Shown here: in pieces, positions 17,446-39,253 of the stretch
How the letters are laid out: every line of letters begins with the position of its first letter
Numbering within the stretch: the stretch's first letter is position 1
DNA from: a virus
Lineage: Duplodnaviria; Heunggongvirae; Uroviricota; Caudoviricetes
Strand: one strand, 5' to 3'
DNA: 40,805 nt
Virus record (IMG/VR): IMGVR_UViG_2706794686_000017
The notes under the pieces: generated by a model
Told to the model about the DNA's origin: nothing
Databases searched by the model: none
What the model saw: only the letters and a program-made list of their open reading frames with translations
Program-made: the position numbers and the translations under genes

Positions 17446-18246
17446 ATTCCTCCTCCCCGCCATGCATGATCTCCACCATGCGCTGCGTCATTCGGACAAA
17501 TCCATTTTCAATAGCCTGCTGATAATCAATGATCACCAGCGCCGACTCCTCGAAAAGGCACTGAATTTCAGCGGGGGCATGAGCGTAATAGTCCGCAATT
17601 CTGCTGAAATTAAACACCGTGTGACGTTCTGCTGCACACAGGAGGAATTTCTCAATATCAGGATCAAGGGACGCCGAACGTATCCGGCTGATCAGCTCCT
17701 GAGTTTTCGTATCGTCGTACAGTTCACTGATATCCGGTTTACCGCCTGACGGCTCATAAACAGGCGTATCAATTTTCGTCGTATACGGCTCCTCCTCATT
17801 TCCTGTACCGGGCAAAACATCCGTCAACAGTTCATCAATTTCTGCCGGGATGAAGCCTGTCAGGGAGACATCAAAATCAGCATTGATTAGGTCCGACAGC
17901 TCCATCCGCNNNNNNNNNNNNNNNNNNNNNNNNNNNNNNNNNNNNNNNNNNNNNNNNNNNNNNNNNNNNNNNNNNNNNNNNNNNNNNNNNNNNNNNNNNN
18001 NNNNNNNNNNNNNNNNNNNNNNNNNNNNNNNNNNNNNNNNNNNNNNNNNNNNNNNNNNNNNNNNNNNNNNNNNNNNNNNNNNNNNNNNNNNNNNNNNNNN
18101 NNNNNNNNNNNNNNNNNNNNNNNNNNNNNNNNNNNNNNNNNNNNNNNNNNNNNNNNNNNNNNNNNNNNNNNGTGCGTCCTGGCGTTGTGCGCATACGGTG
18201 ACAATTCTTGTAATGGGCGATAGACTATCTTTAATTTCTCGCTCAT
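17438..18246 (-). CDS. ParB N-terminal domain (ParB-like nuclease) protein, interrupted by N-run 17910..18171
   Basis: N-terminus MSEKLKIVYRPLQELSPYAHNARTH is typical of ParB/Srx-like domains; acidic C-terminal part follows the N-run. Confidence 0.55.
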
Positions 18247-22857: not shown

Positions 22858-23431
22858 ACAGCGAATCAGATCAAATAAAACGCACATTTGTTAACATTTA
22901 CACAAAGTCTGCGTGGGATATTCTGAAAGAATATCCATAATGTGGAGAGANNNNNNNNNNNNNNNNNNNNNNNNNNNNNNNNNNNNNNNNNNNNNNNNNN
23001 NNNNNNNNNNNNNNNNNNNNNNNNNNNNNNNNNNNNNNNNNNNNNNNNNNNNNNNNNNNNNNNNNNNNNNNNNNNNNNNNNNNNNNNNNNNNNNNNNNNN
23101 NNNNNGGTCATCATCAGATGACTGGAAAAAAGGAAAACAAAAAATACTCATCATACAGTTTTGATTGCAGGGATGAGCCTGCTATGCACAATATGCAGAA
23201 TATAAGCAAGATAANNNNNNNNNNNNNNNNNNNNNNNNNNNNNNNNNNNNNNNNNATCAGGATAACGCATCATCAGCCCCTGCCAAGAAATATCAAAACT
23301 CCCGCCAGCAATGTGTTATCACAATATTGTAAAAAAAACACAGCACCGAAACTATAACTGGTCTCTGTTATAATTTGGAGCAGAAAGACCAGTTGCCCAA
23401 CTAGCAGCATTCTCCCCTGCTTTCCTGACGT

Positions 23432-23538: not shown

Positions 23539-23857
23539 TCAAGCCATTTTCTCAGCAAATGATTCACGCATGGGAATATATAGGGCATACTCAGCAACAG
23601 CTAACCAATTAGCAATCCGTTTTTCGCATGTGCTAAAACACCACTCTGGGTGTGCATCATTTAGCAATTCAGCCATTTTGCGCTTAGTCATCCCCCGCCC
23701 TTCATAGCGTTGCCGGAGAATGCAAATCAATCCTGGATGCTCTGCCAGCACCTCACTTATGACTCGATCAATACATAACGCCTCTGCATCAGTACAATGC
23801 GCCAGCCAGCTCTTTTGCTTGCCGTTGATCATCTCTCGCAAAAACGCTTCCAGCTCN
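23539..23857 (-). CDS. Late antiterminator Q-like protein, C-terminal part (N-terminus masked by N-run)
   Basis: Visible C-terminal 105 aa (...CTDAEALCIDRVISEVLAEHPGLICILRQRYEGRGMTKRKMAELLNDAHPEWCFSTCEKR...); position immediately upstream of tR'-like terminator and lysis genes. Confidence 0.5.
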
Positions 23858-24456
23858 NNNNNNNNNNNNNNNNNNNNNNNNNNNNNNNNNNNNNNNNNNN
23901 NNNNNNNNNNNNNNNNNNNNNNNNNNNNNNNNNNNNNNNNNNNNNNNNNNNNNNNNNNNNNNNNNNNNNNNNNNNNNNNNNNNNNNNNNNNNNNNNNNNN
24001 NNNNNNNNNNNNNNNNNNNNNNNNNNNNNNNNNNNNNNNNNNNNNNNNNNNNNNNNNNNNNNNNNNNNNNNNNNNNNNNNNNNNNNNNNNNNNNNNNNNN
24101 NNNNNNNNNNNNNNNNNNNNNNNNNNNNNNNNNNNNNNNNNNNNNNNNNNNNNNNNNNNNNNNNNNNNNNNNNNNNNNNNNNNNNNNNNNNNNAGCATGC
24201 ANNNNNNNNNNNNNNNNNNNNNNNNNNNNNNNNNNNNNNNNNNNNNNNNNNNNNNNNNNNNNNNNNNNNNNNNNNNNNNNNNNNNNNNNNNNNNNNNNNN
24301 NNNNNNNNNNNNNNNNNNNNNNNNNNNNNNNNNNNNNNNNNNNNNNNNNNNNNNNNNNNNNNNNNNNNNNNNNNNNNNNNNNNNNNNNNNNNNNNNNNNN
24401 NNNNNNNNNNNNNNNNNNNNNNNNNNNNNNNNNNNNNNNNNNNNNNNNNNNNNNNN

Positions 24457-25036: not shown

Positions 25037-25316
25037 TTCTCAATCTCTCGATGGCGCAGCGCAGCAGATGCCAGTTGTTCAGGCTGACGAATAAAGTATA
25101 AATAAACTGGCTATGGTGTAAAGCCCCACATAGCATGAACAAACACTACATATCAAATAGCTGGTACAAGGATAGAAATACGACACTTATTATTAAAAAC
25201 GATTAGATAAATTACATTTTAATGTTATGCAAAAGTTCTTTTTTATCATAACATTTCAATAAAAGCATTACAGATGCAATCATCCCGTCATCATCAATTA
25301 TTTAAGGTGGTTAAAC

Positions 25317-25403
25317 ATGGAAAATAACAAGTTCGCACATCTCGCTCCTTTTTTATCCGTAATCCTTTTCGCTTGTTGTTTTATATGGGCATTATTTTTA
25401 TAA
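25317..25403 (+). CDS. Hypothetical 28-aa hydrophobic peptide
   Basis: AAGGTGG ribosome-binding site 6 nt before ATG; MENNKFAHLAPFLSVILFACCFIWALFL then TAA; lies in an AT-rich intergenic stretch. Confidence 0.3.
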   Translation: MENNKFAHLAPFLSVILFACCFIWALFL

Positions 25404-25811
25404 AGTAGCCACATGATAAGTTGCTGGAATCATATTTCCCACTCAAGTCATTAACATTTGATAAGATATATCTAAAAGGACGCCTTTACATTATTTATGC
25501 GTATATAATTTATTTATATACACAGTAAAGGTATCCTGGGAAAATATTTATCGTTAAAAAATACATCATAAATAATTAAGCTGAAATTTCAGAACACAAC
25601 TAATACACACAATAAGGTTCAGTAACAGTAATCTATGTGGACTACATCGAGATTTTTTGATTAAACTTTAATAACTTATTCCTAACACACAGAATGCATA
25701 AACTAAAAGTAAAACAAATAGTTATACGAAAAACAACCATATTTATTCTATCTTCTCCTCTAATCAACATATCAATTATGTGTTTCATAACAGCTTGACA
25801 TAACCCTCCAA

Positions 25812-25834
25812 AAGATGCATTTTTAATGCATGTT
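25812..25834 (+). promoter_or_regulatory. NsrR-like operator (11-1-11 inverted repeat) upstream of the YeaR-like gene
   Basis: AAGATGCATTT-t-TAATGCATGTT; the half-sites match each other at 9 of 11 positions and resemble the NsrR consensus as recalled; a TTGACA lies at 25795..25800. Confidence 0.5.
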
Positions 25835-25849
25835 TTGGAGGAGGTGGTT

Positions 25850-26188
25850 ATGACACACAAGAGAATTCCTAAAGATTGGGTAATCAAACGCTCAACTCCG
25901 TTCTTCACAAAAGAGAACGTACCTTCAGCGTTATTAACACATCATAATACAGCAGCAGGTGTTTTTGGGCAGTTGTGCGTAATGGAAGGCACTGTAACAT
26001 ATTATGGTTTTACTGATGAGAATGCTACTGAACCGGAGATAAAAGTAGTCATTAATGCTGGCGCTTTTGCAACAAGCCCACCACAATACTGGCACCGTGT
26101 TGAACTAAGCGATGATGCTCAGTTTAATATTAACTTTTGGGTCGCTCCAGACTTTTCGGGCGAAAAAGTCTATAGCACCAAAAAATAG
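25850..26188 (+). CDS. YeaR-like DUF1971-family protein
   Basis: GGAGGAGG ribosome-binding site then ATG; 112 aa MTHKRIPKDWVIKRSTPFFTKENVPSALLTHHNTAAGVFGQLCVMEGTVTYYGF...; only plus-strand gene in the late/nin region. Confidence 0.5.
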   Translation: MTHKRIPKDWVIKRSTPFFTKENVPSALLTHHNTAAGVFGQLCVMEGTVTYYGFTDENATEPEIKVVINAGAFATSPPQYWHRVELSDDAQFNINFWVAPDFSGEKVYSTKK

Positions 26189-26255: not shown

Positions 26256-26808
26256 TAAATATATTGGTTCTACATTGACAGGAGACTTCAACCATAAGAA
26301 GTAATCTGAATACTTGAGCAATAAATTTACTTAAGATTAATGAGCGCACCTTGCCGGACAAAGATAAACCAAGGTAACACCTTTTTTCTAGCCAGTATGT
26401 AATCAATCAGAAAGCCGCTCCATAAGAACAACAGCAAGACAATAAATTGCCATTACAGCCGCAATAGCCAGCGCACATTTGAGAACCAGCACGACAACCC
26501 CCTGTATTAGACGCACACCAGTCCTGATAAATATGAGGCTGTCTCGTCAGTGATTCAATACAACTATTGGGTATAGTTTCTGTGATTTTATTCTGTAGAA
26601 ATGGAACACAACAACCAGTCACCACCAGCACTTCCTTAAATGCTCTAAGTCAGAAACAAGCCAACATTTTAGTCCGCTTTGAGCGATCTGCAGACATTGC
26701 TAGCAGCCTTCTGTGTGAATTCTCAGGGAGCAGGTCGGCATAGCATCACGTTGAGGCTCTTACCCTACTTGTTCACACCAACCCTAACTCCACAGACTGA
26801 TTCATAAA

Positions 26809-27810
26809 TTAGTAATCTGCGTGTTTCGCACTTTTCAGAAATGCTTTCATATTTTCATTAGGTCGCTCAATTTCGAAGTTACTTCCATATAACTCTTGTA
26901 ATTTTGGCCATAACTTACTTAATAACCCTCTCCTGCGATAAAATGGATGTATCCAAACGGTAGATAGGTACGGAGAATTTGCATTTGAATTGTTTATTGT
27001 GACCAGCCCAACTAAACATTGTCGATAACCACTATTATCCATTGATTGTATTTCTTCGACGAATGGATACGCGATTACATCAGTCCAACCATGATCGGTT
27101 GTATCCCATTGCATTCCGTCATGACATTCCTTCGACTGATAGCGGCGTAAAGCTACACACGCGAGCTTTTGCCAATCTGGAGAATTAATTGTGATCTCTT
27201 CATCGTATGACGCGCCTATTGGAGCGGGTATTGGTCTGATTAATCCAGCATGGCATTCATCATAGAACTTCATGTTTCCCTCAGAAACGTTGTGTACGTT
27301 GGGTTGCTCCATGTGTGCGCCATTCAAAAATAGCTCTGATAGTAGTGTATCTACACTGTAATCTTTATTGATTATTGTCGGCTTAGAGTTTTTCTTATTA
27401 AGGCCGCGAGTAACGATTTTTTGATCAATGTTAACAACATGGAATAATCCGTCGGGGAGGCTAGCGAACCACGATGGGGCATCGGACCAGAATAGCATGC
27501 CTTTTGTACTTCTTAAGAGTTTAATTAAGTTAATACAAGCTTCTTCACTAGTCTTGCCGTTGATGCGAAGTATGTTAGGACTAAAGTAATATTCATCCAT
27601 ATCAGGGAATGCAGCTTCGCAAAACTCCTGTACATAATTTAGCACCTGGATTCTACAGAGATCATCATAGCTGGTAATAACTAAGGGGGTATCTTCATTA
27701 CTATTATGATTATCAATAATGCAATCTATAGCGAGACTTACTGCTTTGCGTATCACTTCAGTTGAATCTAACGACTCTAAAAATTTTGTCTTTCGTGTGC
27801 GAATATCCAT
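26809..27810 (-). CDS. Hypothetical protein (333 aa) with C-terminal GNAT-like acyltransferase-fold signature; second gene of AT-rich cargo operon
   Basis: AT-rich ORF 15 nt downstream of the preceding gene; C-terminal LVGLVTINNSNANSPYLSTVWIHPFYRRRGLLSKLW...NENMKAFLKSAKHADY resembles GNAT motifs A and B; N-terminal 230 aa unassigned. Confidence 0.45.
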   Translation of the reverse strand: MDIRTRKTKFLESLDSTEVIRKAVSLAIDCIIDNHNSNEDTPLVITSYDDLCRIQVLNYVQEFCEAAFPDMDEYYFSPNILRINGKTSEEACINLIKLLRSTKGMLFWSDAPSWFASLPDGLFHVVNIDQKIVTRGLNKKNSKPTIINKDYSVDTLLSELFLNGAHMEQPNVHNVSEGNMKFYDECHAGLIRPIPAPIGASYDEEITINSPDWQKLACVALRRYQSKECHDGMQWDTTDHGWTDVIAYPFVEEIQSMDNSGYRQCLVGLVTINNSNANSPYLSTVWIHPFYRRRGLLSKLWPKLQELYGSNFEIERPNENMKAFLKSAKHADY

Positions 27811-27825
27811 GTATGACCTGCGCTA

Positions 27826-28848
27826 TTAAAATTCATGAATGAACGGTTTGTCATCTGGTTGCAAAATGGTGGTTTTATTCGTTGCTACATTTAAACTGTT
27901 GTAGAGCATAATTGCCAGGTTCGATGCATTTTCAATCAGCGTTTCAAGATCCTGGTCTGTAATCACTACGAGGTTCCCTTCTTTATCCTTTCCACCACGA
28001 TGCACTAAGTGATTTCGATTGAGGGTTGCCAATTCAATAGCTTCTATCGGACAGTCTTTTTGTACTTTTATATCGAATGTAGCTTCATAGCGGTCGATTA
28101 CCTTTTTAGTGCTATGCCAGCTTGCACTGATCAAGTGTTCCTTGATTGACCTGATTAGCTCTCCCCTAATTTTCTCGATGGGTTCACCCTTGAAAGGCAA
28201 CGCAGCAATATCTTTGCTTACTTTAAATTCAGTCTTACCTTTTTCTATACAATTGGCTATGTAGACATCATCTTTCTCTATAGAATTAATGAATAGCTCA
28301 ACATAAAGCGTTTCCAAAGCTGTAATAACATTCGTGTAGAGCAAACTAAGCAAGTGGTTTTTTTGCTGTTGTTCAGTTTTATCTTTTGCAAGTTTTTTTA
28401 TTTTATCGATATTATCAATGAATTTTAAATACGGATTACCGGAAGACGTTACAGCGTCGTAGATATCATCATCGTACCAATCATCTATATTATTTGAGTT
28501 TCCAGACCAGTCAAAACATTGTGTTTGTAATTCATCTACTAATTCCTCAATATACTCAGATTTAACATATTGACCGAAGATGGATTGTAGTTCTTCGCTC
28601 GCATCATACGGCCCGCCATATATGTAAGCATAGCCACCTTCTCTACTTTCATACGGACAAGCATTTGCCGGATCTTCAAAGTTTTCAAAGAACCAGTTTT
28701 TCATTACTTCGAGTTGATCTTTTTTGCTTATGTATTTTAAAGATTTTAGTGGAACTTTCTTTCCATTAACCTCGAAAACAATTTTCACGATGTAACGCTC
28801 CCTTGTATCAATTGCGCAACTATTATACCACAGCGAAATACAGGGCAT
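27826..28848 (-). CDS. Hypothetical protein (340 aa) with HEPN-like R-x4-H motif (possible Abi-like RNase); first gene of AT-rich cargo operon
   Basis: ATG at 28848 preceded by AAGGAGG at ideal spacing; AT-rich codon usage; LATLNRNHLVHRGG near the C-terminus fits the HEPN R-[NHQ]-x3-H pattern. Confidence 0.45.
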   Translation of the reverse strand: MPCISLWYNSCAIDTRERYIVKIVFEVNGKKVPLKSLKYISKKDQLEVMKNWFFENFEDPANACPYESREGGYAYIYGGPYDASEELQSIFGQYVKSEYIEELVDELQTQCFDWSGNSNNIDDWYDDDIYDAVTSSGNPYLKFIDNIDKIKKLAKDKTEQQQKNHLLSLLYTNVITALETLYVELFINSIEKDDVYIANCIEKGKTEFKVSKDIAALPFKGEPIEKIRGELIRSIKEHLISASWHSTKKVIDRYEATFDIKVQKDCPIEAIELATLNRNHLVHRGGKDKEGNLVVITDQDLETLIENASNLAIMLYNSLNVATNKTTILQPDDKPFIHEF

Positions 28849-28876
28849 AACCTGCCTCCTTAAACTAACATACCAT

Positions 28877-28902
28877 GAGCCAGCAATGTCCGCTATTGGC
28901 AC
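28877..28902 (-). promoter_or_regulatory. 8-bp inverted repeat (TGTCCGCT / AGCGGACA, 10-nt spacer) in the leader of the cargo operon
   Basis: Perfect inverted repeat between a TTGACA hexamer and the AAGGAGG ribosome-binding site of the 27826..28848 gene. Confidence 0.35.
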
Positions 28903-28986
28903 AAAGCGGACAACCACGCTAGCTCTCCCCTGTGCCAGAAAAATGTCAATTTACATATGAACTAATGCTCTTTGATCTAGTAACGT

Positions 28987-34737: not shown

Positions 34738-35042
34738 TGACTNNNNNNNNNNNNNNNNNNNNNNNNNNNNNNNNNNNNNNNNNNNNNNNNNNNNNNNNNN
34801 NNNNNNNNNNNNNNNNNNNNNNNNNNNNNNNNNNNNNNNNNNNNNNNNNNNNNNNNNNNNNNNNNNNNNNNNNNNNNNNNNNNNNNNNNNNNNNNNNNNN
34901 NNNNNNNNNNNNNNNNNNNNNNNNNNNNNNNNNNNNNNNNNNNNNNNNNNNNNNNNNNNNNNNNNNNNNNNNNNNNNNNNNNNNNNNNNNNNNNNNNNNN
35001 NNNNNNNNNNNNNNNNNNNNNNNNNNNNNNNNNNNNNNNNNN

Positions 35043-35318
35043 NNGATTACCAATTATGAAGCCACTGTTGTAACTACCGATGACATTGTTCACGAGGTGA
35101 ATCTGGAAGGAAAGCGCATTGGCTACGTAATTAAAACAGAAAATAAAGAAACCCCATTCACTGTGGTTGATATCGATGGTCCATCAGGCAACGTAAAAAC
35201 ACTTGATGAAGGTGTCAAAAAAATGTGCCTGGTGCATATCGGAAAGAATCTGCCCGCAGAAAAAAAAGCCGAATTTCTGGCAACTCTAATTGCAATGAAA
35301 TTAAAAGGTGAAATCTGA
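35043..35318 (+). CDS. racC: RacC (start codon partly inside N-run 34743..35044)
   Basis: (M)ITNYEATVVTTDDIVHEVNLEGKRIGYVIKTENKETPFTVVDIDGPSGNVKTLDEGVKKMCLVHIGKNLPAEKKAEFLATLIAMKLKGEI; the preceding gene (ydaE position, ATGGTGATGACT at 34731) is masked. Confidence 0.8.
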   Translation, partial: XITNYEATVVTTDDIVHEVNLEGKRIGYVIKTENKETPFTVVDIDGPSGNVKTLDEGVKKMCLVHIGKNLPAEKKAEFLATLIAMKLKGEI

Positions 35319-39064: not shown

Positions 39065-39253
39065 ATGTATAAAATTACCGCCACTATTGAAAAGGAAGGT
39101 GGCACTCCTACTAACTGGACAAGATATTCAAAATCTAAACTAACGAAATCAGAATGCGAAAAAATGCTCTCAGGTAAAAAAGAAGCAGGCGTTTCCAGAG
39201 AGCAGAAAGTAAAACTGATAAATTTTAATTGCGAGAAACTTCAGTCCTCGTGA
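39065..39253 (+). CDS. ydaC: Rac protein YdaC
   Basis: MYKITATIEKEGGTPTNWTRYSKSKLTKSECEKMLSGKKEAGVSREQKVKLINFNCEKLQSS; directly downstream of ralR. Confidence 0.7.
   Translation: MYKITATIEKEGGTPTNWTRYSKSKLTKSECEKMLSGKKEAGVSREQKVKLINFNCEKLQSS

Follow-up and report, generated by a model that had tools for sequence, protein, structure and literature searches.

The locus and its two genes

The virus record IMGVR_UViG_2706794686_000017, a stretch of 40,805 nucleotides (nt) that was analysed whole and is called the window here, is a Rac-type prophage at ttcA in Escherichia coli, with 99.9% identity over 10 kb to strain NCTC9112. On its minus strand lie two adjacent genes, A and B, that a preliminary description made from the letters had singled out as AT-rich cargo encoding a HEPN-like and a GNAT-like protein. 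Both open reading frames are real, with A at 27826..28848 when read from the ATG then proposed (340 amino acids, aa), B at 26809..27810 (333 aa) and a spacer of 15 nt between them. They belong to a 2.24-kb cassette (26672-28911) bracketed by inverted repeats of about 30 nt, and are flanked by a DUF977 (LygF/Ren-like) gene that closes the replication block and by DUF1971, DUF1367, DUF1364 and DUF1133 genes. Their AT-richness is confirmed by computation of GC content and of its value at third codon positions (GC3): A has 36.1% and B 39.1% GC, against 47.2-53.3% for the upstream genes DUF977, DUF1627, ydaV and ydaU and 45.9% for the window, and GC3 is 0.35-0.36 for the pair as compared with 0.47-0.63 in the same four genes.

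That A and B are cargo rather than lambdoid housekeeping genes, and as a pair fall outside named systems, was also rightly seen. The models of PADLOC-DB v2.0.0 yield no match (the best E value for A is 0.011, to unrelated models, and B has none), NCBIfam models match neither protein, PHROGs places them in two families of unknown function, and RefSeq labels both products hypothetical proteins (accessions in Table 1). An Rfam scan of the cassette and the whole window finds no RNA family within the cassette, and a literature search on both accessions and on HEPN plus GNAT plus anti-phage found no paper on the A-B pair.

Gene A has the all-alpha, up-down helical bundle fold of the HEPN superfamily together with an R-x4-6-H motif, which in that superfamily is usually R-[NHD]-x3-H, and as the R-x4-H segment lies within that fold the HEPN call stands. 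Residues R278, H283 and R284 of the RNHLVHRGG segment, as well as W244-H245 and E179, are invariant in 46 homologues with identity down to 26%. What did not survive is the idea that A could not be assigned, for its homologues place it in Pfam RiboL-PSP-HEPN with HEPN/RES-NTD1. The window protein scores 22.2 bits (E 1.9e-4) with PF18870 (HEPN/RES-NTD1), for which the gathering score is 27.4, and has no match to PF18735 (RiboL-PSP-HEPN) at E up to 1; among the 46 aligned family members, 44 match PF18870 at E up to 0.01 (best 1e-6) and 21 match PF18735 (best 9.9e-10), and many database homologues carry both as precomputed domains. The family comprises 121 clusters in the database search, mostly of 310-325 aa and from Enterobacterales and Aeromonas, with distant members in Acidobacteriota, Desulfocapsaceae and a metagenome-assembled genome of a Candidatus Sedimenticola symbiont, among others. 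Within the cassette lineage gene A evolves under purifying selection, with a ratio of nonsynonymous to synonymous divergence (dN/dS) of 0.12-0.19. A profile search against PDB sequences gave nothing relevant for A, and tblastn against GenBank phage records gave three matches, all distant. A computational study presented the RiboL-PSP-HEPN family with HEPN/RES-NTD1 as a distant relative of AbiD and AbiF (Anantharaman et al. 2013, PMC3710099), and no experimental work on the family was found in the literature.

The leader of A contains the elements first described there, namely AAGGAGG (28861-28855), TTGACA (28949-28944) and an 8-bp inverted repeat, TGTCCGCT/AGCGGACA, inside 28882-28911, and the roles given to them need revision. 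The first 20 residues of the 340-aa form occur in no homologue, and in close relatives the ATG is not kept, with CATAACC or CATACCC in its place. The start used by PGAP and by nearly all homologues is GTG 28788, giving 320 aa, and close relatives keep this GTG together with a Shine-Dalgarno sequence, AAGGGAG or AAGGAGG, 9 nt ahead of it, so that the 340-aa frame, as judged by comparison of sequences, is probably 20 codons too long. A putative extended -10 promoter element, proposed from its conservation and its consensus, persists fused to B in two derivatives that have lost A (loci L004 and L164). Because the ATG and AAGGAGG lie upstream of this conserved element, they would be in the promoter and are probably not translated; present as they are, they are probably not functional signals. 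The same holds for TTGACA, which is there, beyond the conserved cassette and without a -10 partner, and is probably not a functional promoter element. A consensus scan of the region for promoters and terminators gave no excess over shuffles (8 sites against 8.2 expected) and picked up neither TTGACA nor the extended -10, the latter being missed because its -35 is poor.

Gene B ends in a GNAT-fold domain, as its GNAT-like terminal segment had suggested, and the protein shows the alpha/beta fold of the superfamily. Its similarity to PF00583 is at the border (19.9 bits, gathering score 20.7), and 17 of 45 homologues match that model. In the segment R-R-R-G-L-L, set against motif A (Q/R-x-x-G-x-G/A), the last position is not G or A; R292 is invariant in the family and H288 and P289 nearly so, while the motif-A glycine is not. 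Gene B is under purifying selection within the cassette lineage (dN/dS 0.19-0.42), and its family comprises 66 clusters, with proteins of about 333 aa from Enterobacterales, Aeromonas, Shewanella, Marinomonas, Idiomarina and other groups. When 1.84 billion representatives were searched exhaustively by profile, the N-terminal 175 residues turned up only in B-family proteins or fragments of them, and this domain has no sequence match in Pfam, NCBIfam or PDB; a profile search with B against PDB sequences likewise gave nothing relevant. Residues ~180-333, in the same search, also form stand-alone proteins, about 160 aa long, in which the same motifs recur (IRP..AP.G, WQK...RRY..EC, WIHPF.R). These relatives (P0193-P0218, ~150-170 aa) are unrecognised by Pfam and NCBIfam. 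One of them (L177, 4001-4483) is in a phage genome, where it overlaps the stop codon of a DUF3987 primase gene; others are chromosomal, one directly after rpoD in a bacterial chromosome. Distant homologues of B are located in chromosomal islands and integrative and conjugative elements (ICEs), not in phages, and tblastn of B against 50,697 GenBank phage records gave no match.

Cassette ends, mobility and the defence slot

The 8-bp inverted repeat of the leader exists, and its place is within one of the two repeats that flank the cassette, here called U (upstream) and D (downstream), the motif of which has 2 matches in the window against 0.01 expected. A repeat search finds arms of 46 nt with 72% complementarity at the cassette ends. 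The U repeat folds as DNA at -9.3 kcal/mol (z -3.8), and the hairpin of the D repeat is degenerate in this window. Among cassette loci with different flanks homology begins at the U repeat and ends at the D repeat. There are two repeat types, GTCCGC-TTTGTGCCAAnA-GCGGAC-ATTGCT and a second with the loop TnTGAGCGAnnn. About 600 further E. coli genomes, and phage mEp460 as well, have the U type between DUF977/LygF and some other cargo, and in KBN10P04869 an unrelated 314-aa gene is bracketed by U-type and D-type copies. In other genera a cassette of 2.24-2.29 kb, repeats included, occupies unrelated chromosomal sites that are not prophage (L023, L025, L003, L024), which suggests movement as a unit. 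These contexts are between LacI and LysR regulators (L023), between an ABC permease and UmuC (L025), between RadC and a McrB-like AAA_5 ATPase, and beside dynamin-like GTPases. No target-site duplication was seen at the cassette ends in the loci examined, nor any integrase, transposase or recombinase nearby, and compensatory changes in the hairpin stems are not convincing. The repeats may act as recombination handles, form the ends of a non-autonomous element or bind proteins. KBN10P04869 has three consecutive repeats in the order U, D, U, as though slots followed one another, and a related copy adjoins relB/ydfV in the Qin prophage of NCTC9112.

The claim that the genes sit at a prophage position for defence cargo is upheld, as the slot is a defence hotspot. 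What follows DUF977/LygF in phage mEp460 and in other prophages of E. coli is PD-T7-1, PDC-S39 (DUF4209), AbiH paired with a 463-aa partner, a ThsA-like SIR2 accompanied by an NTP pyrophosphatase and a CARF_ADA-like amidohydrolase, or unknown genes. PD-T7-1 was reportedly named by Vassallo and colleagues in 2022. No exact empty site with joined flanks was found in E. coli, where the slot is always filled by some cargo. Among the homologues of A that occur without B, some lie in the hotspot between the P2 gpA and portal genes, and others adjoin a P4-type integrase with PDC-M68B, AbiH or Mrr_cat; defence hotspots have been described in temperate phages and their satellites, P2 and P4 among them (PMC9122126).

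Table 1. Coordinates of the cassette features in the window, followed by features of other loci in their own numbering
Feature	Position	Strand	Remarks
Gene A	27826..28788	-	320-aa HEPN protein, WP_014639476.1, phrog_17908; 340-aa form starts at 28848
A N-terminal alpha/beta domain, HEPN/RES-NTD1 (Pfam PF18870)	28444..28713	-	Invariant residues include W, F, P, G-G, G-G-P
A C-terminal helical HEPN domain, RiboL-PSP-HEPN type	27865..28434	-	
R-N-H-L-V-H catalytic-type motif	28000..28017	-	R258/H263 (320-aa numbering) = R278/H283 (340-aa)
Gene B	26809..27810	-	333 aa, WP_000354966.1, phrog_16994; predicted local distance difference test (pLDDT) 90.6
B N-terminal alpha/beta domain, family-specific, fold unassigned	27286..27810	-	Motifs AIDCLIENE, RG.N
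B C-terminal GNAT-fold domain	26812..27273	-	Also occurs as stand-alone ~160-aa proteins
GNAT motif-A-like segment R292-R-R-G-L-L	26920..26937	-	After beta-strand STVWIHPF
A-B spacer	27811..27825	-	15 nt, weak Shine-Dalgarno (CAGG) only; stop/start overlap in L029 and L030
Shine-Dalgarno AAGGGAG	28798..28804	-	9 nt ahead of GTG 28788; AAGGAGG in relatives
Putative extended -10 promoter element TGGTATAAT	28822..28830	-	Inferred; TGnTAYAAT-like, conserved in cassette relatives
Upstream boundary repeat, U type, GTCCGCTTTGTGCCAATAGCGGACATTGCT	28882..28911	-	Itself a hairpin; contains the 8-bp inverted repeat
Downstream boundary repeat, D type, GTCCGCTTTGAGCGATCTGCAGACATTGCT	26672..26701	+	Inverted copy of the upstream repeat
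Further repeat copies	L186 3505/4673/4721; L164 4817/8754; L165 4876/6154; L175 8452-8465		
Slot cargo regions	L184 4802-7127; L185 3626-5413; L186 5058-6407; L187 3699-6088; L188 3342-4691		Other E. coli prophages and mEp460

One system or two

Whether the two genes act together was judged from 170 loci, drawn from one-genome-per-species contigs, metagenomes and IMG/VR and scanned with hidden Markov models of both families; for A homologues the sequence scanned reached as far as 5 kb to either side of the gene, and less where contigs were short. Only one enterobacterial lineage has A next to B, with 15 nt between them or with an overlap, and its A is at least 83% identical to that of the window. 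All A homologues of 73% identity or less (about 90 loci) are without B within that reach, and all B homologues of 62% identity or less are without A. No conserved alternative partner of A was found, the genes downstream being unrelated to B and to each other except for local clusters (AbiH, a Mu-like protease), and a conserved partner of B, sought among its loci, was not found either. Profile-profile comparison of A with B by hhalign reveals no shared domain.

Natural knock-outs run both ways. In L004 and L164 the cassette promoter is fused to the last ~70 nt of A with B retained, and because these junctions differ from that of L165, A has been deleted at least twice with B kept; cassettes that lost A by deletion account for the B-only loci at 86% identity. 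In strain SF-173 the insertion sequence (IS) IS1 lies within B at about codon 187, so that the GNAT half is lost while A is intact and identical to wild type. In AHB12 it is A that is truncated by IS1, with B intact, and in L014 B is frameshifted with A intact. Each gene is present in 209 of 5,426 complete E. coli genomes, both at 99% identity or more in 208 of these; among the 209 carriers A is partial in 4, and B is at least 80% covered in every one. Within the cassette lineage the two genes co-diverge, with a synonymous divergence (dS) of 0.06-0.65 for both, and co-divergence under purifying selection means that their link is old and not decaying. On this comparative evidence the proposal of HEPN plus GNAT as a conserved two-gene module is not supported, with adjacency in one lineage only and knock-outs of either gene. 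A and B are functionally separable, an obligate toxin-antitoxin relation between them is unlikely, and a looser cooperation is possible. The toxin-antitoxin reading was downgraded, since each kind of natural knock-out leaves the other gene intact.

Insertion sequences recur in the cassette. Beyond the IS1 copies of SF-173 and AHB12, two copies of ISSen4 flank A in E. coli MB56 (L172) and IS2 is in the leader in E. coli O78 strain 3 (L173). This recurrence may reflect a preference for AT-rich targets or selection against expression.

The explanation that we favour, and hold to be somewhat better than evenly placed, is that of a moron-like 2.24-kb cassette with its own sigma-70 promoter in the defence hotspot of Rac- and mEp460-type lambdoid prophages, in which A is a stand-alone RNase of the abortive-infection HEPN type and B a separate, co-transcribed GNAT enzyme. 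A would dimerise via its HEPN domain to form a composite active site and be inactive in the lysogen, with NTD1 responsible for sensing or autoinhibition. Once a foreign phage infects the cell, A would cleave tRNA or mRNA, so that translation and phage production stop, as is the case with HepS of prophage Gifsy-1. B would be an acetyl-CoA-dependent acetyltransferase with a private N-terminal domain and a target of its own, a second accessory factor and neither antitoxin nor sensor of A. That A works alone is supported by its occurrence, at 73% identity and below, without B or any common neighbour and in recognised hotspots; that B does so is supported by its homologues at 62% identity and below, which lack A and any common partner, and from the GNAT half existing as stand-alone 160-aa proteins.

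Several points weigh against this explanation. The RNase activity of A, the acetyltransferase activity of B and any phage phenotype are what we infer. A scores below the Pfam gathering thresholds, and its family assignment, a comparison of sequences, is carried by its homologues. The motif-A glycine varies within the family, so that catalysis by B could be atypical. Location in a hotspot is circumstantial evidence for defence. The adjacency, the tight spacing (15 nt or overlap) and the co-divergence to a dS of ~0.65 fit a functional partnership too, and as residues 1-187 of B persist in SF-173, its N-terminal domain could serve as an antitoxin that works by binding alone.

Among the alternatives, one that we consider unlikely makes A and B a single two-component system, with B neutralising A by acetylation or binding (by analogy with MNT proteins that AMPylate HEPN toxins) or serving as its sensor or co-effector. 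It would account for two genes on the same strand behind one upstream promoter, with a 15-nt spacer that has only a weak Shine-Dalgarno sequence for B and a stop/start overlap in L029 and L030, for the movement of the cassette as a unit into at least six different contexts, for dS values that track to ~0.65 with both genes under purifying selection, and for the several losses of A with B kept, as expected for loss of a toxin. Against it, both families are overwhelmingly solo outside the cassette lineage, B is broken with A intact by the IS1 of SF-173 and the frameshift of L014, and the proteins have neither profile similarity, nor a shared domain, nor a PADLOC model match.

Quite unlikely, as we see it, is a portable defence cassette of a kind not described before, with promoter, HEPN RNase and GNAT between two inverted hairpin-type repeats of ~30 nt that act as exchange handles, moving between the lambdoid hotspot after the replication genes and ordinary chromosomal sites, and with the GNAT cooperating with the RNase in a new immune mechanism of two enzymes, for instance by acetylating the RNase or its target.

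Decidedly improbable, in turn, is that B is a counter-defence or host-modifying enzyme of the prophage, acetylating for example a host or rival-phage protein or an aminoacyl-tRNA, with A a defence gene or not. The GNAT anti-CRISPR AcrVA5 is a precedent, one stand-alone GNAT relative directly follows the DUF3987 primase gene of a phage (L177), and B stays under the cassette promoter once A is lost. The substrate-side half of the GNAT domain is, moreover, unusually conserved (RPIPAP...WQK.ACVALRRYQ.KEC.DG), stand-alone proteins included, which suggests one conserved target. The location of distant B homologues in islands and ICEs and the empty search of phage records speak against such a role.

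That the cassette is chiefly a selfish mobile unit, its genes carried along or addictive cargo without an anti-phage role (stress or persistence modulators, for instance), is highly improbable, for though ~30-nt inverted repeats bracket it and it is inserted at unrelated chromosomal sites in other genera (LacI|LysR, ABC permease|UmuC, RadC|McrB-like), no transposase or recombinase travels with it, no target-site duplication is seen, the catalytic motif of the HEPN domain does not vary, purifying selection acts on both genes, and the E. coli site is a validated defence hotspot.

Related systems and wider significance

Cargo-carrying non-autonomous elements include those resembling miniature inverted-repeat transposable elements (MITEs), REPIN/RAYT elements and IS200/IS605 ends, which serve here as leads only. 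With these the cassette would share ~30-nt inverted repeats with hairpin potential at its ends and unrelated insertion contexts; it differs in having no nearby transposase or target-site duplication, and in that the same U repeat precedes unrelated E. coli cargo.

The HEPN protein HepS of the Salmonella prophage Gifsy-1 acts on its own in abortive infection and lies inactive until the tail-tip protein J triggers its cleavage of tRNA anticodon loops (PMC13043305). As a solo HEPN at the equivalent position in Gifsy-1 it is the best functional analogue for A. Both are encoded by a prophage in an accessory locus after lambdoid replication genes, both have a HEPN fold with R-x4-H in a family without a conserved partner, and by analogy the lysogen should produce A in a form that awaits a trigger to become active. 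In contrast to A, HepS has 218 aa and no HEPN/RES-NTD1, and its trigger and target are demonstrated whereas those of A are inferred; a test for sequence homology of A to HepS found none.

As for the RiboL-PSP-HEPN (PF18735) plus HEPN/RES-NTD1 (PF18870) group, homologues of A down to ~30% identity carry both domains, and the R-N/H-x3-H motif is the same. That family, however, is defined computationally only and is named for fusions to endoRNase L-PSP that are absent from A, and the window protein is below both gathering thresholds. HEPN-MNT pairs (type VII toxin-antitoxin; 8xdj, 7ae2, 5yep) likewise have a HEPN gene adjoining that of a group-transfer enzyme, but here the partner is a GNAT and not a nucleotidyltransferase, is downstream, co-occurs without conservation and can be disrupted with A intact. 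The GNAT toxins TacT, AtaT and ItaT, of type II systems with DUF1778 (PMC9177977), resemble B in fold, in a catalytic domain of ~160 aa and in being on mobile elements. They differ from it in that no DUF1778/ribbon-helix-helix antitoxin gene is next to B in the cassette or its relatives, in the extra 175-aa N-terminal domain of B, and in the lack of any family-level sequence match of B beyond the generic PF00583. With PD-T7-1 and the P2/P4 hotspots (PMC9122126) what is shared is a slot of varying content whose place in the phage backbone is fixed, though the A-B cassette matches none of the systems there.

Solo HEPN genes of the abortive-infection type are a known kind, and by analogy A is a further candidate in a prophage defence hotspot, accompanied by an uncharacterised GNAT protein. 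Should A protect against phages, it would represent a second, unrelated solo-HEPN abortive-infection family beside HepS, and provide a first function for an architecture that occurs widely, in prophages and islands as well as in P2/P4 hotspots. With its 333-aa and stand-alone 160-aa forms, B represents a so far uncharacterised family of GNAT proteins, of which the conserved substrate face points to one specific target. Carriers include the extraintestinal and avian pathogenic E. coli strains (ExPEC/APEC) UTI89, S88, APEC O1 and IHE3034, and so the cassette could influence how susceptible lineages of clinical relevance are to phages. For the discovery of more defence genes the repeat-bracketed slot downstream of DUF977/LygF is a convenient target, and it may also show how such cargo is exchanged. 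Most worth following are the repeat-bounded portable cassette and the GNAT family.

Elsewhere in the window, masked runs of N are present at 986-1248, 17910-18171, 22951-23105, 23215-23255, 23857-24193, 24202-24456 and 34743-35044. The very low GC around 22.7-24.5 kb and 34.5-35.2 kb is an artefact due to them, and open reading frames reported to span such runs are meaningless. An AT-rich stretch of ~800 bp (GC 0.29-0.34; 25040-25825) lies between the DUF1367 gene and the DUF1971/TehB-like gene (120 aa; 25826-26188, plus strand) on the opposite strand. It has no annotated gene, none of its open reading frames reaches 100 aa and Rfam gives no match to it at gathering score, and it may hold a small gene or a regulatory RNA. 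The sole match to Rfam at gathering score in the window is the antitoxin small RNA RalA of the RalR/RalA type I toxin-antitoxin system of Rac, at 39071-39249 on the minus strand (225 bits).

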